A stretch of 64,000 nucleotides of DNA from Woeseiaceae bacterium (GTDB taxonomy: Bacteria > Pseudomonadota > Gammaproteobacteria > Steroidobacterales > Woeseiaceae), in assembly GCA_041602775.1 (NCBI GenBank), contig JBFIFN010000002.1, positions 64,200 to 128,199 on the forward strand. The letters run 5' to 3'. Positions 19,134-56,558 of the stretch are shown here, piece after piece; the first letter of the stretch is position 1; each line of letters starts with the position of its first letter. The position numbers and the translations under genes are program-made. A model generated the notes under the pieces. That model searched no databases, was not told the DNA's origin, and was given only the letters and a program-made list of their open reading frames with translations.

Positions 19134-19928
19134 TCAGACGGCGACCGCCGCCCTGATGTGCGGATGGGCCTCGTAATTCAGGATTTCGAAGTCTTCGTAG
19201 CGGTAGTCGAAGATGCCCGGCGGGCGACGCTTGATCGCGAGCGTCGGCAAGGGCAGCGGCTTGCGCGACAGCTGTTCGTCGGCCTGGTCGAGATGATTCA
19301 GGTACAGGTGGCAGTCGCCACCCGTCCAGATGAAATCGCCGACACCGAGGTCGGCCTGCTGCGCCAGCATGTGCGTCAGCAGCGCGTACGAAGCGATGTT
19401 GAACGGCACGCCGAGGAAGATATCGCAGCTGCGTTGGTAGAGCTGGCAGCTGAGCTTGCCGTCCGCGACGTAGAACTGGAACAGGCAGTGACACGGCGGC
19501 AGCGCCATGTTGTCGATCTCGGCCACGTTCCAGGCGGACAGGATGATGCGACGCGAATCCGGGTTGTTGCGGAGCTGATCCATGACCTGCGACACCTGGT
19601 CGATCTTGCGGCCGTCCGGCGCCGGCCAGCTGCGCCACTGCACGCCGTAGACGGGGCCGAGATCGCCGTTTTCGTCGGCCCATTCGTCCCAGATCGATAC
19701 GCCGTTCTCCCTGAGATAGCGGATGTTGTTGTCGCCCGAGAGGAACCACAGCAGCTCGTGGATGATCGAGCGGATGTGCAGCTTCTTGGTCGTGACGAGC
19801 GGAAAGCCCTGCGACAGGTCGAAGCGCATCTGGTGGCCGAAAATACTCAGGGTCCCGGTGCCGGTGCGGTCCTCCTTGCGCGCTCCCTGAACGCGCACGA
19901 GCCGCATCATGTCGAGGTATTGCTGCAT
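19134..19928 (-). CDS. thyA: Thymidylate synthase
   Basis: Motifs MQQYLDMM..., [17 protein letters not shown] and [13 protein letters not shown]. Confidence 0.96.
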
Positions 19929-19929
19929 G

Positions 19930-20715
19930 TCAGGCCTTGCCCCCCGCGTGCGATCGGTAAGCCATGGCCAGCATGATAGCGCCCGCCACGATCATCGGCA
20001 CGGTCAGCACCTGGCCCATCGTGATCCAGCCCTGCGACAGGTAGCCGAGGTGGGCGTCGGGCACGCGGTAGAACTCGATCAAGAAGCGAAACACGCCGTA
20101 GAGGAGCAGGAAGAGCCCCGACAGGGCCATGTAGGGCCGGGGACTTGCCGAGTACCACCACAGGATGGCAAACAGCACGAAGCCCTCGAGGGCCGACTCA
20201 TACAGCTGCGAGGGATGCAGGACCTGCCCGTCAACGAGGAATCCCCAGGGGACATCGGTCGGCTTGCCCCACAGCTCGCCGTTGATGAAATTGCCGATAC
20301 GGCCGAAACCGAGGCCCAGCGGCACGAGCGGCGCGACGAAGTCGGTCATGCGCCACATCGTGTGGCCCAGCTTGCGGCCATACAGCCACATGGCGATCAG
20401 CACGCCCGCAAGTCCGCCGTGAAAGGACATGCCGCCCTCGGTGATCCGGAACAGGTAAAACGGGTCCGAGAACAGCTGGTCCGTGCCGTAGAAGAGCGCG
20501 TAGCCGATGCGCCCGCCCAGGATGACGCCCAGCATCGAGTAGAATACGAGGTCGTCGACCTGGTCCGGTGTCACCGGCGAGTCCGTCCGCCTGCAGCGGC
20601 GCCTGGCGAGCCACCACGCTAGCACGAAACCGACCACGTACATCAGCCCGTACCAGCGAATCTTGAGGAACCCGATCGAAAAGATTACCGGATCGATCTC
20701 CGGGTATGTCAGCAT
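19930..20715 (-). CDS. lgt: Prolipoprotein diacylglyceryl transferase
   Basis: The internal ATG (complement of 20713-20715) gives [26 protein letters not shown].. Also [13 protein letters not shown]. lgt-thyA linkage. Confidence 0.92.
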
Positions 20716-20761
20716 GGCGTCCCGCTTAGCATCCAGGAAGACCGGTATCATAGAGCAATCC

Positions 20762-22801
20762 ATGTCGAATCGCCTCGCCAAAGAATCCAGCCCCTATTTG
20801 CTGCAACACGCCGACAATCCCGTCGACTGGTACCCGTGGGGTGACGAGGCCTTCGCGCTGGCCGCGGCGTCCGGCAAACCCGTGTTGCTGTCGATCGGCT
20901 ACTCCGCGTGCCACTGGTGCCACGTCATGGCGCACGAGTCCTTCGAGGACGATGCGACAGCGGCGCTCATGAACACACTGTTTGTCAACGTCAAGGTCGA
21001 CCGCGAAGAGCGCCCGGACATCGACAAGATCTACCAGACAGCGCACCAGTTGATTACCCAGCGCCCGGGGGGCTGGCCGCTGACGATGTTTCTCGACGGC
21101 GACGATCGCAGACCGTTCTTCGGCGGCACCTATTTTCCCCGGGACGCGCGTTACGGCATGCCCGCATTCGGCGACCTGCTGCAGAAGATCGCCGACCACT
21201 ACGCACAGAATCGAGACGACGTCCGCGCCCAGGGCGAGCGCATGCTCGAGGTCTTCGCGCAGCTCGATCCGGCGCCCGCGGACGACATCGCTTTTTCCGC
21301 GGAGCCGCTGGCCAAGGCGCGCGCCACGCTGGCGCAGAATTTCGACCGTGAGTACGGCGGCTTCGGCGGCGCACCGAAGTTTCCCCACCCGACGACCATC
21401 GATCGCATGCTGCGCCACTGGCGCAGCACGGTCGCCGATGCCGAACCCGACGTCGAGGCCCTGTACATGGCCGCGCTGACGCTCGCGCGCATGGCCGAAG
21501 GCGGCCTGTTCGACCACCTGGGCGGCGGCTTCTACCGCTACTCGGTCGACCGCTACTGGCAGATTCCGCATTTCGAGAAAATGCTCTATGACAACGGACC
21601 GCTGCTCGCCGTGTACGCGCAAGCGGCCATAGCGACGGGGGAAAGGCTGTTCGCCGACACGGCCAACGCGACGGCCGACTGGATGCTCGCCGACATGCAG
21701 GATGCCAACGGCGGGTTCTACGCGACCCTCGATGCCGACTCCGAAGGCCATGAGGGCCTCTACTACCTGTGGGAGCCCGACGAGGTTCGCACGATCCTCG
21801 GCGACGACTACGCGGTATTCGCGCGCCGCTTCGGGCTCGACCAGGCTGCGAATTTCGAAGGCCGATGGCACCTCACCGTGCGGCAGGAAATCAGCGACGA
21901 CGAGATAGCGGCGATCGGCAGGGCGAAAACAGCGCTCCTCGAGCGTCGCGCGATACGCGTCCCGCCCGGGCGCGATGAAAAACAGCTGACGTCGTGGAAC
22001 GCGCTGGCCATTCGCGGCCTTGCCATCGCAGGACGCACGCTCGGCCGGCCCGAACTCGTCGACGCGGCCGCGAGCGCCGTCGACTTCCTCGGCGCCAGGA
22101 TGTTCCGCGACGGACGTCTTTTCGCCAGCTTCAAGGACGGCGAGGCGAAGTTCATGGCCTACCTCGACGACCACGCGTTCCTGCTCGACGCCCTGCTCGA
22201 ATTACTGCAGGCGCGCTGGAATTCAGCGCATCTTGCGCTCGCGGAACAGGTGGCCGGGATAATGTTGCGGCATTTCCAGGACCGCGATAGCGGCGGCTTC
22301 TGGTTCACGGCCGATGACCACGAGCAGCTCATTCATCGCAGCAAGCCCTTCGCTGACGAAGCGGTGCCCTCCGGCAATGGCGTCGCCGCGTTTGCGCTGC
22401 AGCGCCTCGGCTTCCTGCTCGGCGAAACTCGCTACCTGGACGCGGCCGAGTCGGCGCTGAGCGCCGCCTGGCGCGCCATGGACGAGTATCCGCACGGCCA
22501 CGTGAGCCTGCTCGCAGCGCTCGAGGAATACCTCGAGCACCCCGAAATTGTCGTCATCCGCGGACCGCAGGACGAGATCGACAGCTGGCGGGATTCAGCG
22601 GCAAAAGTGTATGCGCCGAGGCGCCTCGTATATGCCATCCCCGCCGATGAAACCGGGCTGCCCGGCGCGTTGGCCGACCGCGCCCCGCTCGACGGCCAGA
22701 CCGTGGCCTATCGCTGCCTGGGTACGCACTGCGAAATGCCGGTAACGACGTGGGAAGCGCTCGCGGCGCAGCTCGCGAGCAGCGAGACGCCTCAGGGATA
22801 G
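20762..22801 (+). CDS. Thioredoxin-domain protein, DUF255/YyaL family (N-terminal Trx fold + alpha/alpha-toroid)
   Basis: ATG at 20762. Motifs [18 protein letters not shown] and [13 protein letters not shown], typical of the family. Confidence 0.85.
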
Positions 22802-23736
22802 GCTCTCAGCGTTGCACCCATCGTCGGCTGGACGCTGTTGCCGCGCGACGTGCGGAACCGTACCGGCAGGGACTCGACCCCCATCCCGAGGTTGCGCAGC
22901 ACCGCGAAATGCAGATGCGGGCCGCTCGTAAACCCCGTGTTGCCCGAATCGGCAAGGTACTCGCCGGCGACGACGCGGTCCCCTGGCGCGACACGGATGG
23001 TATTCCAGTTGAGGTGCGCATAGACGGCATAGGTGCCATCGTCGTGCAGGATTCGTACGAGATTGGCGAGGTCCGCGTAGCGCGCCTCGTCCGGGCCGCC
23101 ACTGAAGTTCGTCGTTGCGACGTCGAAGACGATACCGTCGCGTGCCGCAACGACATCCGTGCCGACGGGCATTGCGAAATCGACGGCGTGCATGCTGTCC
23201 CGGGTGCGGTGCGTCGTCGAGACCGGATACGCCTGCGTCACGTCATAGGCCGCGCCGACCGCGTATGGCAGGCGGTAGGTCGCGTCGTCGTCGGGCTGTG
23301 CGGCCGGGTCGCCGGGGACCAATTCGAAGCGATAGCGGACGAACGGCGCTGCGACGTTGCCCATCACCGGCAGTTCCAGCAGCACGAGATCCGAGCGAGC
23401 GGGCACGAGCCAGCGCAGGTCGTCATCCGGATGGGGATAGTCGACGCCCTCGATACTGTCGAAAACGAGACCGACCTCGATGGGCGCGTGGAAGCGATTG
23501 CTCGCCACGATGCGAACGCCCGAACCCGTGAACGAGTCCGCCACGCTCAGCCCTCCGGGTTCCGCGCGCCGCCCCAGGGGTTGCGCCTCGGCACGGCTGC
23601 GGTCGGCCGGCGGACGGTCGGAGTAAATCCACTCACCGTCATCGCCACGATACTTGTACAGCGTCTGGGCGGACGCGAGGCCGCACAGCAACAGCGTCGA
23701 TACGATCGTCAGAACCAGCGTGCGGTCAGGAACCAA
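22792..23736 (-). CDS. Secreted M23-family metallopeptidase with N-terminal DUF4124-like segment
   Basis: Signal peptide. [18 protein letters not shown] (DUF4124-like). M23 metal ligands [11 protein letters not shown] and [15 protein letters not shown]. Its start overlaps the upstream protease gene by 11 nt. Confidence 0.85.
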
Positions 23737-26524
23737 GGTCCACGCGCCTCCAGCCGCTTGCAGTGCGCTGAATCTCGTAGGCCGGCCAGTACTGCGTATC
23801 CAGCTTCAGCGTTATGACCTCGGCCGTATCGTTCCAGGATACGGTCTTGAGCCGCACCGAATCACGATGATCGAGATCCTTGACGGCGTCGATGAAAGCC
23901 TGCAGATCGGGAGTCGGCTGTTCATTGACCTCAACCACCCGCCGGCCTGCCCAGAGCCCATAACGCGTGGCCGGGGAGCCGTAGCTGAAGTAAGCAACGT
24001 AGACGCCTTCGGTCGAGACGCCGCGCTGCGCCGCCATGGCGCGGTGAGGCTCCTGGATCAGGGCGCCGGCCCAGGAAATCGCGCGCGCGATGCCGCCGCC
24101 ATCCAGCGCGGCCGTCCTGACGGGAATCTCGAGGACCTCGCCGTTACGCCAGACGGTCACCCTGACCTCCGGTTTCTGCACGGCATGTTCGAGTTCTCTG
24201 AAGGACGTTACGACGTCGCCGTCGATGGCGAGGACCATGTCGCCGTTCTCGAGCAGTTCGGATGCCGCCGAGCCCGCGACGAGCCGAGTCACGGAGAGCG
24301 CGCGACGGCGCACCGGGTTGTTCTCCTCCAGTCGCCTGACCCAGTCCTCGTCGACGCCCATCTTGCGGGCGGCAAACAGGGGCGCATAGACGAACTCGGC
24401 CTCGAGCGAATAGAACGGTCTGCCTTCGCGGACCGTGTTCACGAATTGCTGCGCCACCTCGGAGCCGACACCGCGGTTGAATTGCGCGGACTCCCCGCCG
24501 CTCTGCGTGGCAAAACTCGACCACGTGGCCAGCACTTCGCCGCGCTTGTTCACGATGACGCCATCGACGTCACCGGGCGCGTTGACGAGCGAAATGCCTT
24601 CGATGTTGCTGTCGCGAAAGCGCAGCGTGCGCGACAGCGGCAGGACAAGGGGATCGACCGATGCCACCGTGCTCTCCTGGTGGACGAGCTGATGGTCACC
24701 CTTGATGCCAACGACCCAGACCTTCTCTCCGGGGCGCAGCGTTGCGGTATTGAACGTGGCAGCGCGCACCGGCGTGCTGCCGATGCTGGCGGGATCGTAG
24801 GAAACGATCGCGTAATTGTGCAGCGGGTGCAGCTGCTCGATCTTTCCTTTCACCTCCAGTGATCCGGCAAAGGTAATCGACACGTCGCCAATCGCGATGG
24901 GCACCGTATTACGGTCCACGAGCACGTAGCCGCGCTCCCTGTCGACAACCAGGCCCGTGCCGTAGTAATGGCGATCGGCCACGCCCGACAGCGTGTACGG
25001 AAGGTCGAATGTGACGACGACCAGCGACGGCGCGATCGCGTTGACGATGGGATCCTTGTACTTCGTCAGCCGCGTGCTGCCTTGTTCGGGCGCCGCCGCC
25101 GCAGGGCCCTCGGCGAGTTCGCGGCATGGCCAGACGCCCAGCGCATCGTCGCGCGAGCAGCGGCGCGACGGAAACCAGGTACGGTCCATTTCCAGGAGGC
25201 GAACCACGGGGTTTTGCGGGTTCTCCATCGTCACGTACCGCAGTAGCGCGCGCTCACCGTTCGCCAGGCCCGCCAGCGCCGCCTCGAAATCGTCCAGCGT
25301 GGCTGTCGGCTCACCGCCCACCTCGATGATGACAGCGCCCCTCGGTACGGCTGCCCGCGACAGCAGGTAACCCGGGTTGGCGACGTAGATACCGCTGGCC
25401 GGCCGGTTGTAATGCCGCGCCTGCTGGTAGGAGAGCTGGTTGACGACGGCGTCGCCGAACTCGAGATACTCGTCGGGCGTAATGGCATGCAGGTCCGCGA
25501 CCTCGATACGGGCCTCGATGCGGCGACCGCCCCGCTCGACCGTCACGTCGATCTCCTGGCCGACGTGGTTGTCCAGGATGGCAGCCAGCGGCACGAATTC
25601 GGTCACGAGTTCGTCGTTGACGCGGATCAGGATATCGCCCGGCGAGAGCACGCCGGCGGCCGGCGACTCCGGAATGACCTGCTCCACGGTCAGCATGCCA
25701 GTCTGGTCCGGGTAGCGGCGTCGCGCAAGCGTCTCCGACGCCTCGGTCAGCCCCAGGCGGCGCAGTTCGTCAAAGGGCTCGCTGCGGAACGTCGTCTGCA
25801 GGGTACCGCGCGTGACCGGCTCCCCGTTCTGCAATTTGCGCAACGCGCGCTCGACGCGGTCGAGCGGCAGGAAGAAGCTGCTGGCCGCCGAGCTGTTGGC
25901 GCCGGCGTTGAGCGCCACGACCTCGCCGTCGATATTGACCACCGGCGATCCCGACGATCCGCCAGAGGTGCCGGAGGCAGCCTGCAGGTAGAAGGTATTG
26001 AAGTCGTTGTACTTCCCGCGACCGTATTCCGGGGCCTTGCGATCGAGGCGCGCGATGGTGCCGGCGAGAATCGACAGCTGCTCGCCGGCATCGTTGCCGA
26101 TGACGCGGATCTCCTTGCCGATCCCGGCGCCGCCGGGTGCGAGCGGCAGCTCGACGGGCTCGATGTACCTCAGCGCCGCAGGGTCGTAGCGAAAGAAACC
26201 GAAGTCGTGCACCGGGTCGCGATACACAGGCGTGAGTTCGACTTCCTCGTTGTTGCGGAACACGGCTTCGGCGATGACCGGACCGGGGGTGACGACGTGT
26301 CGATTCGTCAGAATGAGGCCGCGCTCGGCGTCGACGACAAAACCCGTCGCCTGGCTCGAGGTGTTCCATTCGGTGTCGAACGCGCGCGTGGAATCGACGC
26401 GAATGGACACTACACCGGACGAAATCCGCTCGAGCGTCTGGGTCCACGCCGGCTCTTCTGCCGCCGATGTCGGTGAGGCAACGATGAGCGCAACGAGCGC
26501 CGCGATAATCCTGCTCTGAATCAT
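23726..26524 (-). CDS. Nma111-like duplicated HtrA-type serine protease with multiple PDZ-like domains (932 aa)
   Basis: Signal peptide. The first half carries the trypsin-fold triad contexts TNRHVV, VHDFGFF and GTSGGSSGSPVV. PDZ-like segments are present (..VIPESPAAGVLSPGDILIRVN.., ..AAVPRGAVIIEVGG..). The second half repeats the architecture with substituted catalytic positions. Confidence 0.8.
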   Translation of the reverse strand: MIQSRIIAALVALIVASPTSAAEEPAWTQTLERISSGVVSIRVDSTRAFDTEWNTSSQATGFVVDAERGLILTNRHVVTPGPVIAEAVFRNNEEVELTPVYRDPVHDFGFFRYDPAALRYIEPVELPLAPGGAGIGKEIRVIGNDAGEQLSILAGTIARLDRKAPEYGRGKYNDFNTFYLQAASGTSGGSSGSPVVNIDGEVVALNAGANSSAASSFFLPLDRVERALRKLQNGEPVTRGTLQTTFRSEPFDELRRLGLTEASETLARRRYPDQTGMLTVEQVIPESPAAGVLSPGDILIRVNDELVTEFVPLAAILDNHVGQEIDVTVERGGRRIEARIEVADLHAITPDEYLEFGDAVVNQLSYQQARHYNRPASGIYVANPGYLLSRAAVPRGAVIIEVGGEPTATLDDFEAALAGLANGERALLRYVTMENPQNPVVRLLEMDRTWFPSRRCSRDDALGVWPCRELAEGPAAAAPEQGSTRLTKYKDPIVNAIAPSLVVVTFDLPYTLSGVADRHYYGTGLVVDRERGYVLVDRNTVPIAIGDVSITFAGSLEVKGKIEQLHPLHNYAIVSYDPASIGSTPVRAATFNTATLRPGEKVWVVGIKGDHQLVHQESTVASVDPLVLPLSRTLRFRDSNIEGISLVNAPGDVDGVIVNKRGEVLATWSSFATQSGGESAQFNRGVGSEVAQQFVNTVREGRPFYSLEAEFVYAPLFAARKMGVDEDWVRRLEENNPVRRRALSVTRLVAGSAASELLENGDMVLAIDGDVVTSFRELEHAVQKPEVRVTVWRNGEVLEIPVRTAALDGGGIARAISWAGALIQEPHRAMAAQRGVSTEGVYVAYFSYGSPATRYGLWAGRRVVEVNEQPTPDLQAFIDAVKDLDHRDSVRLKTVSWNDTAEVITLKLDTQYWPAYEIQRTASGWRRVDLGS

Positions 26525-26645: not shown

Positions 26646-28109
26646 TCAGTCCGGGACGTAGCGCAGGTCGAGTTCGCGCGCCGCCTTGACGTCGTCGAGA
26701 CGCCGCACGGGCATCGTGTACGGTGCTTCCTTGTACTGCACGCCTTCTTCCCGCGCAGCTCGGGCGATGTCGATCATCGCTGCGACGAAATTATCGAGCG
26801 TCTCCTTGCTCTCGGTCTCCGTCGGCTCGATCAGCAGGCACTCCGGCACGAGCAGCGGGAAGTAAGTCGTCGGCGCATGGAAATTCCGATCCAGCAGCGC
26901 CTTGGCCATGTCCATGGCCGTCAGGTGCAGTTCCTTCGCCTCGCGCTTCAGCGTCACGATGAACTCGTGGCTGGCACGACGTTCCGGGAACGCGAGTTCG
27001 AAGCCGGCATCGCGCAGCTTCGCCATCAGGTAGTTGGCATTCAGCGTCGCGTACTCGGCGACACGCTCCATGCCGTCCCGGCCCAGCATGCGCATGTAGA
27101 CGTAGGCGCGCAGCAGCACGCCGGCGTTGCCCATGAACCCCGACAGGCGCCCTATGGACTGCGGAATGTCGTTCTCTGCAGCCCAGTCATAGAAGTCCGA
27201 GCCATCGACTTCGGTCTTCTTGACGACCGGGATGGGCAGGAAGGGCAGCAGGCGGTCATTGACGCCTACGGCACCGGAACCCGGCCCGCCACCGCCGTGC
27301 GGCGTGGAGAATGTCTTGTGGAGATTCATGTGGATGACGTCGAAGTCCATGTCACCCGGTCGAACCTTGCCGAGAATCGCGTTCAGGTTGGCCCCGTCGT
27401 AGTAGAGCAAGCCGCCCGCGTCGTGAACACGATCGGCGATTTCCTTGATATGCCGCTCGAATACGCCCAGCGTCGAGGGGTTGGTCAGCATGATGCCCGC
27501 CGTCTGCGGCCCGAGCGCGGCCTCCAGGGCATCCATATCGACGTCGCCGTCGGGCCCGGTCGGAATCTCCCTGACGGCGCAGCCGCACATCGTCGCCGTC
27601 GCCGGGTTGGTACCGTGGGCGGCGTCCGGCACGATGATCTCCGTGCGTTCCGTATCGCCGCGCGAACGATGATAGGCCATGATCATCGCGACACCGGCGA
27701 GTTCGCCCTGTGCCCCCGCCATCGGCGTCAGCGAGACGCCCTGCATGCCCGTTACTTCCTTGAGCATCTGCTGCAGCTCGTACATGCAGGAGAGAAATCC
27801 CTGGCCGTGCGTTACCGGTCCCAGCGGATGGCGGCCGGCGAATTCGGGCAACAGGGCGAGCGCGTTGCAGGCCCGCGGGTTGTATTTCATCGTGCACGAG
27901 CCGAGCGGATAGAACTGCGTATCGATCGAGAAGTTCTTCCGCGACAGGCGCGTGAAGTGCCTCACCGCCTGCAGTTCCGACACCTCGGGCAGACGCGGCC
28001 TGTCCGTCCGCAAAAACTGCGCGGGGATCGACGTTTCGCCAGCCTCGGCCGGAGCCTGTGCGAATGCGCGACGGCCGTTGCGCGATTTTTCGAATATCAG
28101 TTCGCTCAT
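26646..28109 (-). CDS. gcvPB: Glycine dehydrogenase (decarboxylating) subunit 2
   Basis: PLP-Lys context [16 protein letters not shown]. Two-subunit P-protein arrangement. Confidence 0.95.
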
Positions 28110-28136
28110 GTGTTCTTCCCGGGCCAGTCGGCCCTC

Positions 28137-28667
28137 CTACGTATCGATGTCTATGCCCAGCGCACGGAAAGCGGCCTTGTAGTCAGGCTCGGCGCCGATG
28201 TCCTCGATGTGCTCGCGATGCACGATCGAATTGTTCTCGTCGATGACCATGACGGCCGGCGAATACATGCCCGCCAGCGGACCGTCGAGGATCAATACGC
28301 CGTAGTTTTCGCCGAAACCGGCATGACGAATCGCGGAAAGCCCTTCGACGCATTGCAGGTCGTGCGCCTTGCGAAAGCGGCTGTGCGCGAACGGCAGGTC
28401 GTAGGTCACGACCAGCATGGCCAGGTCCTTGCATCCCGCGGCATACTCGTCGAAACGAATCACGCTGCGCGCAAAAACTTCGGTATCCACGCTCACGCCG
28501 ATGAACATGATCTTTCGCAGTCCGGCAAAATTGGCGAGCGACACGTTCTGCAGCTTGGTGTTCACCAGGGATACATCCGGCGCATACGTGCCGATACGCG
28601 GCAGCTCACCGTACGTCTGGTAGCTCGTGTTGTCGTAGCGAATCTTCGCAACAATCGTGCCCGACAT
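28137..28667 (-). CDS. Thiol peroxidase (Tpx)-like protein lacking both catalytic cysteines
   Basis: Start ATG (complement of 28665-28667) overlaps the gcvPA TGA (ATGA). Tpx-like throughout (..DLPFAHSRF.., ..DGPLAG..AVMVIDENN.., ..EPDYKAAF..). However it has SVDTEVF where Tpx has SIDTGVC, and SRFRK where Tpx has SRFCG. Confidence 0.8.
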   Translation of the reverse strand: MSGTIVAKIRYDNTSYQTYGELPRIGTYAPDVSLVNTKLQNVSLANFAGLRKIMFIGVSVDTEVFARSVIRFDEYAAGCKDLAMLVVTYDLPFAHSRFRKAHDLQCVEGLSAIRHAGFGENYGVLILDGPLAGMYSPAVMVIDENNSIVHREHIEDIGAEPDYKAAFRALGIDIDT

Positions 28668-30013
28668 CAGACCATGGCCTCCCGGAAGGCCGCAACGCAT
28701 CGGTCGATGTCGTCATCGGTCTTCGTTTCCGTTGCGCAAACGAGCAGTGCATCGGTCCCGGCGTATTCGGTCAGGTCGAAGCCGCCGAGGATGTTCTTCC
28801 CCGCGAGTGCCGCGAGGACAGGCGCCACCGGGCGATCGAACCTGAGCGCCACCTCGTGGAAAAACGGCCCGCCGTACAGGCGCTCGATGCCGTCGATCGC
28901 GCACAGGCCATCGACGAGGCGCGTCGTGTTGGCGTGCGACCGCCGGGCCACGCGTGCAATACCATCGAAGCCGAGCAGCGACATGTAGATCGTCGCTGCG
29001 GTCACCATGAGGCCCTGGTTGGTGCAGATATTGGACGTTGCTTTGGTGCGGCGAATGTGCTGTTCGCGCGCCTGCAGTGTGAGTGCAAAACCGGGATTGC
29101 CGTCGAGATCGGTCGTGCGGCCGACGATGCGTCCCGGCATCTGTCGCACGTGCTGTTGCTTGCACGTCATGTAGCCGAAGTACGGCCCGCCCGACGACAG
29201 GGGCACACCCAACGGCTGTCCCTCACCGCAGGCGATATCGACGCCGTCGGCGCCCCAGTGTCCCGGCGCTTTCATGAGGGCGAGTGACGTCGGGTTGGCG
29301 ATACCGATCGCCAGCGCGCCTTGCGCGTGGGCCCAGTCGGTCAGGCGGTCGACGTCCTCGAGCGTACCCGGGAAAGCAGGCTGCTGCATAACGACACCGA
29401 CGGGTTTGCGGCCGTCAGGCAGCTCGTCGAACGCCACGTTGCCGGAGGCGGGGTCCTGTGGCAGCCATTCGAAGGTCAGTCCCTGCCCCCCGGCGATGGC
29501 CTCGGCTACCTTTTCGTAGACAGGATTCACGCCCGGAGCCAGCAGGATGAGGTTCGTCTTGACCTTGCGATTGGCGCGCACGGCCATGAGCGCGGCTTCG
29601 GCGAGACCCGAAGCGCCGTCGTACAGCGACGCGTTGCTGACATCGAGCCCGGTCAGCTCCGTGATCATCGTCTGGTATTCATAGATCGTCTGCAGCGTGC
29701 CCTGGCTTGCCTCCGCCTGGTACGGCGTGTAGGCGCTGTAATACTCGCCACGCGTCGCTATATCCCAGACAGCCGTCGGGATGTGGTGCTCGTAGGCGCC
29801 GGCCCCGATGAAGGAGAGGGGTGCGCCGTCCCTGGCGGCACGCTCGCGCATCAGGCGCGAGATTTCCATCTCGCCGAGCGCCTCGGGGATGGCATCGAGG
29901 TGTTCGATACGAAGTTCTTTCGGAATTTCGTCGAACAGGTCCTCGATGGACTCGGCGCCAATGGCATCGAGCATCTCCCGGGTGTCTTTCTCCGTGTGCG
30001 GAATAAATGGCAT
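28667..30013 (-). CDS. gcvPA: Glycine dehydrogenase (decarboxylating) subunit 1
   Basis: Typical GcvPA N-terminus [19 protein letters not shown].. 448 aa. Adjacent to gcvH. Confidence 0.95.
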
Positions 30014-30023
30014 CAGATCGTTC

Positions 30024-30416
30024 TCAGTCGTCCAGCTCGTCGAGCATTTCCTGGTAGGCGTCCGGCGTCATGAGATCGCCTTCGTCGAAGTCGCTGGCGT
30101 CGATGCGCACGATCCAGCCATCGCCGTAGGGATCGGCATTGATCTTCTCGGGATCGTCGGCCAGCTCCTCGTTGACGGCCGTGACGCTGCCCGCAACCGG
30201 TGCATACACGTCGGATGCGGCCTTGACCGACTCGACGACGGCCATCTCGCCGCCCGCGTCCACGTCCTGGCCCACTTCGGGCAGCTCGACGTACACGAGG
30301 TCGCCCAGCGAATTGGCGGCGTGCTCGGTGATGCCCACCGTCACGCTGCCGTCAGACTCGCGGCGCAGCCACTCATGATCGTTGGTGTAGAGGAGATCCC
30401 CCGGCAATTCACTCAT
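30024..30416 (-). CDS. gcvH: Glycine cleavage system H protein
   Basis: Lipoyl-lysine motif [13 protein letters not shown]. 130 aa. Confidence 0.96.
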
Positions 30417-30451: not shown

Positions 30452-31543
30452 TCAGACGTCGATGCGAACCTGCCCATTGCGGACGAACGGCGTCTTGACG
30501 ATGCGCGCGTTCAGCAACTTGCCCCTGACATCGACCTGGACGCGGTCGTAGTCGCCGGCCGGCACCCGTGCAAGCGCAATCGAGCGGCCGATCGTCGGCG
30601 AAAAACCGCCGCTCGTGATTTCACCCTCGCCGACGCCGTCGACAACGACTTTCATATGGTTGCGCAGGACGCCCTTGTCTTCCAGCAAGAGACCGACGAA
30701 GCGGCGCCGGTCGGTGCGTTCGCGCTGGGCCTCGAGCGATGCCCGGCCGACGAAATCGCGCTCCGCTGGCTCCCATGCGACGGTCCAGGCGAGGCCCGCC
30801 TCGAGCGGCGAAATCGTCTCGTCCATGTCCGTCCCGTAGAGGTTCATGGCCGCCTCGAGGCGCAACGTGTCGCGTGCGCCGAGCCCGCAAGGCGCGACGC
30901 CGGCCGCCAGCAGGCGATCCCACGTAGCCGGTGCGTCGGCGGCCGGCAGGACGATTTCCCAGCCGTCCTCGCCCGTGTAGCCCGTGCGCGCGACGAACCA
31001 GCCGCCCGCAAACATGCCGGTGAACGGCTTGAGCGCGATGGCCGCGTCACGATACGCGGCGTCGATGCAGGGCGCCGCCAGTTCCCGCGCCGCAGGACCC
31101 TGTACGGCGATCATCGCGAGATCGGCGCGTTCGGTCACCTTCACGCCGAACGCCCCGCTTTGCCCGCGGATCCACGCGAGGTCTTTTTCGCGGGTCGCCG
31201 CGTTGACGACGAGGCGGTAGTCGGTGTCGCCGACGAAATAGATGATCAGGTCGTCGATGACGCCGCCATCCTCGTTGAGCATGCACGTATACAGCGCCTT
31301 GCCGTGGCTCTCGAGTTTGGCAACATCGTTGGCGACGAGGTGCTGCAGGAAGTCGCGCACGCGCTCGCCCGACAGATCGACTATGGTCATGTGGGACACG
31401 TCGAACACGCCCGCGCGCTCACGCACGGCGAAGTGCTCTTCCTTTTGCGACCCGTAGTGCAGCGGCATGTCCCAGCCGCCGAAATCGACGATGCGCGCGC
31501 CGGCTTCGACGTGCTTGTCGTATAGCGGAGTTTTCGAACCCAT
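30452..31543 (-). CDS. gcvT: Aminomethyltransferase (glycine cleavage T protein)
   Basis: The internal ATG (complement of 31541-31543) gives [32 protein letters not shown].. The longer 31807 start would run through the riboswitch. Confidence 0.94.
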
Positions 31544-31563: not shown

Positions 31564-31596
31564 AAAAAAAGGCGGCAGGCACGAGCGCCTGCCGCC
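31564..31596 (-). terminator. Intrinsic terminator forming the expression platform of the glycine riboswitch
   Basis: The minus strand reads GGCGGCAGGC-GCTCGT-GCCTGCCGCC followed by TTTTTTT, about 20 nt upstream of the gcvT ATG. Confidence 0.8.
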
Positions 31597-31785
31597 CCTC
31601 TGTCCCTTGGTACCTGAGAGATGAGCAGCGCGTGCCTGGAGCGACGGCCGCTTTCCCCTTCGGTGGGCCTCGCGGCCTCTCTCCAGAGCTGATCAGCGTA
31701 CACGGTCCCTTTGCCTGAGCGTTTCCGAGCGAGTTGCGCCTTCGGCGCCCCGATTGAACGGGGTCTCTTCCAGGCACGCTATAGA
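31597..31785 (-). promoter_or_regulatory. Tandem glycine riboswitch (two aptamers)
   Basis: The minus strand carries two aptamers. Aptamer 1: CTGGAAGAG..CGCCGAAGGCGCAA..CTCAGGCAAAGGGAC. Aptamer 2: CTCTGGAGAG..CACCGAAGGGGAAA..CTCAGGTACCAAGGGACAGAG. Both match the conserved glycine-aptamer cores, in the leader of gcvT. Confidence 0.88.
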
Positions 31786-31875
31786 TCAGTGGCGTCATGA
31801 TAGCCAATGCCCCTGCCGGTTGCCAGCCGCGGGCCGGCTGGCGACAATGCCGCCACGACGGATCAGGGAGTTGGA

Positions 31876-33618
31876 ATGAAAACGACGGGAATTGCTTTCA
31901 CTTTGCTGTTGCTGGGCGCGACGGGGTTCGCGCGGGCGGACGCCGGCGAGGCGTTCCACGCACTGCTCGAGGAGCACTGGGAATGGCGCCTCAAGAGCGC
32001 CCCGCTCATGGCATCGATGATGGGTGACCGACGCTACAACCGCGAGTGGACCGATTCCGGCGTCGCCGCGATCGAGCAGCGCCACCGCGACACGCGCGAA
32101 TTCCTGCGGCGCGCCTATGCCATCGACCGGGACGCCCTGTCCACGGAAGACCAGCTCAATCATGAGCTGTTCCGGCGCCTGCTGCAGGACAACGTCGACG
32201 AGTTCCAGTTCAACGGCCATCTCCTGCCCTTCGGGCAACGCGGTGGCGTACAGAATCTCGACAACATTACCGACCGGCTGCGCCTCGTCACGGTCGCGGA
32301 CTTCGACGACTGGCTGGCACGCCTCGGCAAGATCGACGACGTCATCGACCAGACAATCGCGCTCGCCGAGCGCGGCCGCAAAACCGGAATGATGCCGCCG
32401 CGTATTATCATGGAGCGCCTGCCCGACCAGATCGCGGCCCAGATCGTCGAGTCGCCGGCCGACAGCCCGTTCTTCAAGCCGTTCGCGAATCTGCCCGAGG
32501 ACTTCACCGCAGCCGATCGCGAGCGGCTGCGCGCCGCGGCGATCGACGTCATCGAGAAGACGGTTCTGCCGGCCTACCGCAAGCTCGGTCGCTATTTCGA
32601 TGATGACTACTTGCCGCATGCGCGGGAGAGCATCGGCCTGTCCTCGCTGCCCAACGGCGCCGCGTGGTACGAATTTCGCGCGCGCTCGTACACGACGACC
32701 CGCATGACCCCCGACGAAATTCACCGCATCGGCCTCGACGAGGTCAAGCGCATTCGCGGCGAGATGATGACGATCATCGAGGAGGTCGGCTTCGGCGGCA
32801 CGTTTGGCGAGTTCCTGGAGCACCTGCGCACCGATCCGCAGTTCTACTTCGACGACCCGGAGGAGCTCTACCGCGAGTATCTCGCAACGAGCAAGCGCAT
32901 CGATCCCGAACTCGTCAAACTGTTTGGCAAGCTACCGCGCATGCCTTACGGCGTGAAGCCGATTCCCGAAGCGATCGCGCCGGACACGACCACGGCTTAC
33001 TACTCGCGCCCGGCCGCCGACGGCAGCCGCGCCGGCATCTACTACGTGAACCTGTACAAGCCCGAGGTCCGGCCGAAATACGAGATCGAGGTTCTCAGCG
33101 TGCACGAGGCCATGCCGGGCCATCACCTTCAGATCGCGCTGCAGCAGGAACTCGGGGACGTACCGATGTTCCGTCGATTCATGGGCTTCACGGCTTTCGT
33201 CGAGGGCTGGGGGCTCTACAGCGAGCGCCTCGGCTACGACCTCGGACTTTACGAGGATCCGTATTCACGCTTCGGGCAGCTGACGTACGACATGTGGCGA
33301 GCCGTGCGGCTCGTGGTCGACACCGGTATGCACTACAAGGGCTGGACACGCCAGCAGGCCATCGACTTTTTCAAGGACAACGCGGCCAAGACCGAACACG
33401 ACATCGTCAACGAGATCGACCGCTACATCCTGTGGCCCGGACAGGCGCTCGCGTACAAGATCGGGCAACTCAAGATCCTGCAGCTGCGCGGCCGCGCCGA
33501 AGTGCAACTCGGCCCGCGCTTCGATATCCGCGCCTTCCACGACGAACTGCTCGGCGCCGGCGCCTTGCCGCTCGACCTGCTCGAGCAGCGCATGGACCGC
33601 TGGATGGCGAAGCAATAA
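31876..33618 (+). CDS. DUF885-family secreted protein (putative zincin-like metalloprotein)
   Basis: ATG at 31876 with GGGAG upstream. Signal peptide [31 protein letters not shown] motif and overall DUF885-like sequence. Confidence 0.8.
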
Positions 33619-44427: not shown

Positions 44428-44625
44428 CATTGGCGCTTCCTGCGGTGTTCGATACCGACCTGGATACCTTTCGACCCTAAATCATTACCTCGGGGTCGTG
44501 TTCTGTCGGCAGCATTTGAGCAGGGCCGTTTCGACGGTAAGCCTGTTGCGGCCACGGCTGACCCCACCTGTTGCTCTGGTTCGAGAGCGACGGCTCGGTA
44601 ACGGCACAGGCGGGAAGCGCCTCCT
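44428..44625 (+). ncRNA. ssrS: 6S RNA (candidate)
   Basis: Canonical zapA-ssrS-ygfA position. A ~190-nt non-coding segment whose ends form a 12-bp closing stem (GGCGCTTCCTGC at 44432-44443 pairs with GCGGGAAGCGCC at 44610-44621). Further imperfect pairing follows (TACCGA/TCGGTA, GGGGTC/GACCCC), giving a long interrupted duplex. Confidence 0.6.
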
Positions 44626-56485: not shown

Positions 56486-56558
56486 GGCTGGGGGAGAGGG
56501 ATTCGAACCCCCGTTGGCGGAGTCAGAGTCCGCAGTCCTACCACTAGACGATCCCCCA
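56485..56558 (-). tRNA. tRNA-Gln (anticodon CUG)
   Basis: The minus strand reads TGGGGGA-TC-GTCT-AGTGGTA-GGAC-T-GCGGA-CTCTGAC-TCCGC-CAAC-GGGGG-TTCGAAT-CCCTC-TCCCCCA-G-CCA. This is a complete cloverleaf with a 7-bp acceptor stem and encoded CCA. Confidence 0.9.

Follow-up and report, generated by a model that had tools for sequence, protein, structure and literature searches.

In the stretch of DNA analysed here, 64 kb of contig JBFIFN010000002.1 from a Woeseiaceae bacterium (hereafter referred to as the window, with all coordinates counted from its first letter), the genes of the glycine-cleavage system are arranged on the minus strand in the order gcvT-gcvH-gcvPA-X-gcvPB, all in the same orientation. 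X denotes an additional open reading frame (ORF) encoding a derivative of the thiol peroxidase Tpx, and it separates the genes for the two subunits of the split P-protein. As stated by the first-pass annotation of this DNA, X comprises 176 amino acids and ends 27 nucleotides ahead of gcvPB; its stop codon, a TAG, ends at position 28137, and the ATG of gcvPB lies at 28109. The overlap with the stop codon of gcvPA had been read as ATGA; the junction is actually TGATG, in which the TGA of gcvPA (28669-28667) and the ATG of X (28667-28665) share a single base. The proposed control of the operon by a glycine riboswitch is borne out by an RF00504 aptamer upstream of gcvT. A second glycine aptamer was not found at E ≤ 0.1, which leaves a single-aptamer riboswitch, and a scan of the window sequence detected no promoter-like site inside the gcv operon. 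Thus, in its co-orientation, its tight spacing, its dependence on one riboswitch and promoter and its synteny across species, as described below, X behaves as a component of the glycine-cleavage operon.

By sequence as well as by fold, X belongs to the Tpx subfamily of peroxiredoxins (NF001808, PF08534), in line with the homology previously recognised by eye. It matches the Pfam Redoxin domain (E 4e-15) and reaches 146.8 bits against the NCBIfam thiol peroxidase model NF001808, the cut-off of which is 123, and the solved Tpx chains in the Protein Data Bank (PDB) align with it free of gaps at E-values from 1e-31 to 5e-33. Moreover, the AlphaFold2 model of X (predicted local distance difference test, pLDDT, 90.8) retrieves Tpx structures as the top Foldseek matches (2XPD and 3HVV, template modelling score 0.88-0.92, root mean square deviation 1.4 Å). 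When compared with the atypical 2-Cys peroxiredoxin Tpx of Escherichia coli and Yersinia pseudotuberculosis (3HVV, 1QXH, 2XPD), X shares the fold, the length and the N-terminal hairpin, is 38-40% identical in a collinear alignment, and conserves the interface residues D57, R93, R110, G125 and P126 (E. coli numbering). In contrast to Tpx, it carries a short C-terminal extension ending in RALGIDIDT, is encoded inside the glycine-cleavage operon and not by a stand-alone gene, and is devoid of four catalytic residues: neither the peroxidatic nor the resolving Cys is present, and the active-site Arg and the Pro of the active-site motif are replaced as well.

The correspondence of these residues was taken from the ungapped HMMER alignment of X to the solved Tpx chains (Table 1). 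In X, the motif P-x-x-x-T-x-x-C reads V58-x-x-x-T62-x-x-F65, the position of the resolving Cys is occupied by Arg99 and that of the active-site Arg by Pro137. Hence, the exchanges of the peroxidatic Cys for Phe and of the resolving Cys for Arg, both noted in the first-pass annotation, hold up against solved structures, and no Cys is found at the peroxidatic position; the loss of the Arg had been missed, and the motif Pro is gone as well. Because Phe stands at the peroxidatic position in fourteen independent metagenomic relatives, the Phe codon does not represent a sequencing error. At the position of the resolving Cys, a Cys is present in none of the 120 closest relatives and in none of 81 species loci. 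The two other cysteines that had been pointed out at non-canonical positions, C79 and C106, do exist in X but vary even among its closest relatives, and two members of the Phe clade, L087 and L089 (93% and 86% identical to X), contain no cysteine at all. Since such close relatives are devoid of any cysteine, thiol-peroxidase activity is predicted to be absent from X, and we consider it almost certain that the protein is dead as a thiol peroxidase. Within the Phe clade, the active-site loop (X residues 55-65, positions 28505-28473 on the minus strand), formerly NIFPSIDTxVC, now reads FIGVSVDTEVF. Judging from the joint exchanges N51 to F, F53 to G and C61 to F (E. coli numbering), the pocket looks refilled with aromatic side chains and not just decayed.

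Table 1. Position of X, of its key residues and of the surrounding elements of the glycine-cleavage operon in the window
Feature	Position	Strand	Size	Basis
X (Tpx-derived, predicted pseudo-peroxidase)	28137..28667	minus	176 aa	ORF, family assignment, fold
X V58, at E. coli P54 (motif Pro)	28496-28494	minus		ungapped HMMER alignment
X T62, at E. coli T58 (motif Thr), kept				ungapped HMMER alignment
X F65 (codon TTT), at E. coli C61 (peroxidatic Cys)	28475-28473	minus		ungapped HMMER alignment
X R99, at E. coli C95 (resolving Cys)	28373-28371	minus		ungapped HMMER alignment
X P137, at E. coli R133 (active-site Arg)	28259-28257	minus		ungapped HMMER alignment
gcvPB (P-protein beta subunit)	26646..28109	minus	487 aa	Pfam GcvP2_C + GDC-P
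gcvPA (P-protein alpha subunit)	28667..30013	minus	448 aa	Pfam GDC-P, E 4e-119
gcvH (lipoyl carrier H-protein)	30024..30416	minus	130 aa	Pfam GCV_H, E 1e-43
gcvT (aminomethyltransferase)	30452..31543	minus	363 aa from ATG 31543	homologues of 363 aa, GCV_T + GCV_T_C
GC-rich hairpin followed by seven U, between aptamer and gcvT	31564..31596	minus		read from sequence
Glycine riboswitch, single aptamer	31693..31782	minus		Rfam RF00504, 60 bits (gathering score 32)
Sigma-70-like pair of -35 and -10 elements, immediately 5′ of the riboswitch	31797..31826	minus		consensus match only

A search of 5.8 billion proteins yielded 1,772 matches at E ≤ 1e-10, the best 120 of which are 69-93% identical to X and nearly all 176 amino acids in length; upon 50% clustering the core family forms one full-length cluster. 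The nearest full-length relatives outside the slot between gcvPA and gcvPB (P0128 and P0130, 44-45% identical) are stand-alone Tpx genes that lie outside gcv operons. In a genome scan with one genome per GTDB species, a relative of X was present in 201 species, and synteny was read in the best 80 of them, which are labelled Woeseiaceae, Chromatiales, Gammaproteobacteria, Proteobacteria or uncultured bacterium. As far as the contig extends, all of these 80 loci display the order gcvT-gcvH-gcvPA-X-gcvPB. Likewise, both flanks were found in 70 out of 80 metagenome loci, the remainder comprising nine that are cut by a contig end and one with a truncated gcvPA, and the same arrangement recurs in loci L001, L087-L089, L091, L093, L095-L099 and L180, so that synteny was read in about 170 loci in total. 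The metagenome scan, which was aimed at the deep Cys-free clade introduced below, yielded core-family loci only and served the synteny analysis. The ORF of X is intact at every locus. The distance from the gcvPA stop to the X start is -4, -1 or +1 nucleotides in most loci, and the X stop and the gcvPB start overlap by 8 nucleotides in 50 of 79. Taken together, gene order and spacing indicate that X is a stable, translationally coupled operon component that is found lineage-wide in Woeseiaceae-like Gammaproteobacteria, and not a local accident. One locus deserves separate mention: in L167 (1-668), GcvPA is represented ahead of X by its last 48 residues only, and an unrelated membrane-protein ORF lies upstream of these, pointing to either a chimeric assembly or a rearrangement.

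The slot between gcvPA and gcvPB is occupied by a graded series of forms, denoted here by their residues at the positions of the motif Pro, the motif Thr, the peroxidatic Cys, the resolving Cys and the active-site Arg. In a related lineage it harbors P0399 (locus L180/L181), a fully canonical 2-Cys Tpx (P-T-C-C-R) that is 60% identical to E. coli Tpx. P0399 resembles X in its slot and in its neighbourhood of DUF885, gcvT, gcvH and a Trypsin_2/PDZ protease, but differs from it in the canonical residues, in the absence of the C-terminal extension and, presumably, in being active. A large clade is devoid of the resolving Cys only, with Pro, Thr, peroxidatic Cys and Arg kept, and most Woeseiaceae species have lost the Pro besides the resolving Cys (V-T-C-x-R). 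In an Arg-less subclade the Arg is replaced, mostly by Pro, and within this subclade the peroxidatic Cys has given way to F, S, N, Y or G. With its signature V-T-F-R-P, X is, as judged from these residues, an end state of the series. In a sister lineage, moreover, the slot is filled by deep, very divergent Cys-free proteins of 32-37% identity to X.

The order of the losses was analysed by parsimony on a neighbour-joining tree of 319 non-redundant sequences. All but one of the 38 sequences without the peroxidatic Cys are also without the Arg, and parsimony demands at least 11 transitions at the position of the peroxidatic Cys. According to this reconstruction, the peroxidatic Cys was lost at least 11 times, almost always after loss of the Arg. 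As graded forms occupy one and the same slot, recruitment appears to have preceded the loss of catalysis, and the loss to have been repeated. The proposal of the first-pass annotation that a pseudo-peroxiredoxin had been recruited into the operon therefore has to be turned around: with occupants ranging from a canonical 2-Cys Tpx to dead forms, recruitment came first and loss later. Very probably, X is an ancient, lineage-wide component of the operon that derives from an active Tpx. The neighbour-joining tree groups P0399 with ordinary gammaproteobacterial Tpx, so that an independent insertion is conceivable; the synteny suggests that P0399 goes back to the same insertion as the other occupants of the slot.

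Next to these losses stands the constraint on the protein. Across 81 species the pairwise ratio of nonsynonymous to synonymous substitutions (dN/dS) is 0.13 for X, compared with 0.08-0.11 among the gcv genes. For the Phe clade, at a dS of ~0.9-1.0, the ratio amounts to 0.04-0.09 for X and 0.06-0.07 for gcvPA. The values for X are virtually alike in Arg-less species (0.120, with 0.081 for gcvPA and 0.073 for gcvPB) and in species with the triad of Thr, peroxidatic Cys and Arg intact (0.124, with 0.106 for gcvPA and 0.086 for gcvPB). Catalysis was lost without relaxation of the X protein as a whole. X thus combines the absence of catalytic residues with continued purifying selection, as do pseudoenzymes in general, inactive relatives of enzymes that persist as scaffolds or regulators, and these dN/dS values, together with the intact ORFs everywhere, rule out a decaying pseudogene.

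The site-by-site pattern is more specific. In 216 triad-intact sequences, E. coli positions 51-53, 58, 61, 64, 84 and 133, which belong to the active-site loop and pocket, are invariant or nearly so, and Thr, peroxidatic Cys and Arg are absolutely invariant, a degree of conservation which argues that the triad-intact forms are working peroxidases. After loss of the Arg, relaxation is confined to this loop and pocket, at E. coli positions 51-53, 58, 60, 61, 64, 82, 84, 133 and 153. Of the accessory roles that the first-pass annotation had suggested, namely structural, chaperone or ligand-binding, the last is therefore disfavoured so far as the former active-site pocket would be the binding site, given that this pocket relaxes once the Arg is lost. 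Residues D61, R97, R114, G129 and P130 of X are invariant in the core family; they are the equivalents of E. coli D57, R93, R110, G125 and P126, which are dimer-interface contacts of Tpx (PMC3288085). The residues of the homodimer contacts (R110/G125-P126 and D57/R93), as defined in the published Tpx work, are thus invariant by sequence in the core family. Furthermore, the blocks DLPFAHxRF, LSAIRHAGFGENYGV and DENN are invariant in all core-family forms, and X contains all of the family-specific invariant residues Y16, Y89, H95, H115, G117, N121, M134 and D156, which are absent from canonical Tpx.

We favour the following explanation. An ancestor of the Woeseiaceae-like Gammaproteobacteria would have acquired an ordinary Tpx gene in the slot between gcvPA and gcvPB, where its descendants would have been retained since. 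The X lineage would then have turned into a pseudoenzyme, keeping the Tpx fold and the homodimer-interface residues and losing both the peroxidatic and the resolving Cys, the Arg and the motif Pro. Predicted to be translated together with both P-protein subunits and kept by selection on surfaces outside the old active site, X may assist the split glycine decarboxylase GcvPA/GcvPB, or the glycine-cleavage complex more widely, as an accessory or structural partner in dimeric form. The dependency on X would have arisen during the stage of an operon-linked peroxidase and outlasted the chemistry. To this explanation as a whole, in which X assists the glycine-cleavage P-protein as a dimer and independently of catalysis, we assign a probability of roughly 0.45. 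Its parts differ in strength. Sequence and structural model both describe X as a folded, putatively dimer-competent Tpx derivative that is predicted to be unable to perform thiol-peroxidase chemistry. Strong purifying selection and the predicted co-translation imply that X still does something without catalysis, and we hold it to be highly likely that its function persists independently of catalysis. Naming the P-protein or the glycine-cleavage complex as its partner is tentative, and we give this assignment somewhat less than even odds. Going further, one may picture the split glycine decarboxylase of Woeseiaceae as a three-component enzyme with the Tpx-derived dimer as an obligate third (gamma) subunit or as an assembly factor; this extension is doubtful.

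Several observations weigh against a partnership with the P-protein. The alpha2beta2 P-protein of Thermus (PDB 1WYT) is known to assemble without a third protein. GcvPA and GcvPB of the window are collinear with chains A and B, respectively, of the Thermus thermophilus structure 1WYT (E 5e-99 and 5e-148), and no extra docking domain was found in either subunit. Likewise, no Cys columns that track the peroxidatic Cys were found in GcvH, GcvPA, GcvPB or GcvT; C67 and C284 of GcvPA vary without tracking it. Finally, among the deep Cys-free lineages, where divergence is unsaturated, X outpaces its neighbours 2-4-fold in rate of evolution, and the proportion of nonsynonymous differences (pN) reaches 0.40-0.45 for X vs 0.18-0.21 for gcvPA, which is unexpected for a tight, obligate subunit.

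An alternative places the X family at the lipoyl arm of GcvH. Most members keep Thr, peroxidatic Cys and Arg, and nearly all lack the resolving Cys, in which the majority of the family resembles 1-Cys peroxiredoxins such as Mycobacterium tuberculosis AhpE, though the latter belong to a different subfamily and X of the window lacks even the peroxidatic Cys. Since the resolving Cys is absent, the Cys-keeping members would depend on a thiol from another molecule, and a dithiol carrier, GcvH, is encoded in the operon. With dihydrolipoyl-GcvH as the resolving and reducing thiol they could be H-protein-dependent peroxidases, and glycine cleavage would be coupled to peroxide removal, or the H-protein re-oxidised without L-protein; a dead X would have kept only the binding of the H-protein, for example to shield or hand over the arm. 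There is precedent in the lipoyl-dependent Ohr/OsmC peroxidases, which provide a conceptual link between Cys peroxidases and lipoyl carriers including the H-protein (PMC5384416). The OsmC protein of Trichomonas vaginalis may need lipoylated H and L proteins, a suggestion its authors did not test (PMC5384416), and GcvH-L of Staphylococcus aureus, a further precedent, acts in oxidative-stress defence (PMC12440151). However, the Ohr/OsmC fold is unrelated to that of X, and the link is hypothetical here and inapplicable to X itself, which has no thiol able to react. Moreover, the former substrate pocket, through which the lipoyl arm would enter, is the very part that relaxes after loss of the Arg, a poor fit to X, and for members of the P0399 type, in which the resolving Cys is kept, thioredoxin might well suffice. 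We therefore judge a role at the H-protein to be unlikely. Any remaining activity of X as a peroxidase or another redox enzyme would have to proceed via C79 or C106, the two cysteines left. A non-canonical catalytic Cys was dismissed as neither is conserved, and with L087 and L089 free of cysteine and both the active-site Arg and the motif Pro gone, we accord this idea hardly any probability.

The conserved interface residues would also suit a regulatory heterodimer, in which dead X pairs with an active Tpx encoded elsewhere and modulates that enzyme during glycine catabolism. Conservation in the dead forms is indeed strongest at the Tpx dimer-interface residues, and the active-site pocket of Tpx includes F89' and L35' of the partner subunit (PMC3288085). 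In the window, however, a tblastn search with E. coli Tpx found X alone and no second Tpx, and the fixed slot between the P-protein genes as well as the tight translational coupling would be left unexplained, which renders such a heterodimer rather improbable. A weak tblastn match within thyA (19557-19742) is spurious. The coupling itself is at the heart of yet another possibility, namely that the ORF of X is kept as a translational spacer only, so that gcvPB is coupled to ribosomes ending at the X stop, and that the protein is dispensable. In most loci start and stop codons overlap on both sides of X, and in the deep Cys-free lineages X retains 32-39% identity vs 62-75% for GcvPA, as a spacer might. 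This is opposed by the strong amino-acid constraint (dN/dS 0.04-0.13 for core family and Phe clade), by dozens of invariant residues and the confidently predicted Tpx fold, and by the window itself, where gcvPB starts 27 nucleotides after X and without overlap. A mere spacer thus seems very improbable, even more so than the heterodimer.

In full-text literature searches, no relevant account emerged of a gcv operon that contains a Tpx or peroxiredoxin gene, of glycine cleavage in Woeseiaceae, of Cys-less peroxiredoxins or of a Cys-less Tpx family, which agrees with the remark in the first-pass annotation that no earlier account was known, and the searched literature held no example of a pseudoenzyme in the Tpx subfamily or in a glycine-cleavage operon. 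What emerges is a Tpx lineage that is fixed inside the glycine-cleavage operon and has repeatedly turned into a pseudoenzyme. The operon of Woeseiaceae contains an extra, universally retained gene that is automatically annotated as "thiol peroxidase" even when it is Cys-free: records of NCBI and JGI give this name to members of the X family, and dead X itself passes the equivalog cut-off of NF001808. In marine sediments, Woeseiaceae rank with the most abundant bacteria. Counts of peroxidase genes from Woeseiaceae-rich metagenomes are probably inflated. Beyond annotation, canonical, resolving-Cys-less, Arg-less and Cys-less forms in one slot make up an unusually clean natural series in which the passage from enzyme to pseudoenzyme, and the residues freed once catalysis goes, can be studied. 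If X were a partner of the P- or H-protein, a textbook enzyme system would gain a new component, and glycine and one-carbon metabolism would be tied to peroxide defence; if it were a third subunit, the slot would document a natural stepwise conversion of an enzyme into a scaffold, with all intermediate grades still living in it. Even with no partner role, X would call for caution when antioxidant genes of sediment metagenomes are counted by homology.

Some features of the operon and its surroundings remain to be reported. The hairpin and U-run between the aptamer and gcvT probably form a terminator-type expression platform. The true start of gcvT is probably the ATG at 31543; the mechanical ORF list extends the gene to a TTG at 31807, across the riboswitch. 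On the plus strand, an ORF of 703 amino acids (26877-28988) runs antisense over gcvPB, X and gcvPA; it is of the spurious type expected in high-GC DNA and not a gene. Upstream of the operon, core loci contain a divergent DUF885 gene (31807-33618, plus strand, in the window). Directly 3′ of gcvPB, nearly all related loci examined encode a Trypsin_2 + PDZ protease (932 amino acids, 22792-26524, minus strand, in the window), which is followed in core Woeseiaceae loci by an overlapping M23 peptidase gene, often with DUF4124, and in the deep lineage by a cpYpsA-domain gene in place of the M23 peptidase. In L180/L181 a DAGK gene separates gcvPB from the protease, and GcvH is called with 183 amino acids (L180:2834-3385) vs 130 in the window, which suggests either an N-terminal extension or an over-long gene call. 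Elsewhere the window contains a 6S RNA (44434-44620, plus strand; RF00013, 64 bits), a tRNA gene (56488-56558, minus strand) and, both on the minus strand, thyA (19134-19928) and lgt (19930-20781).

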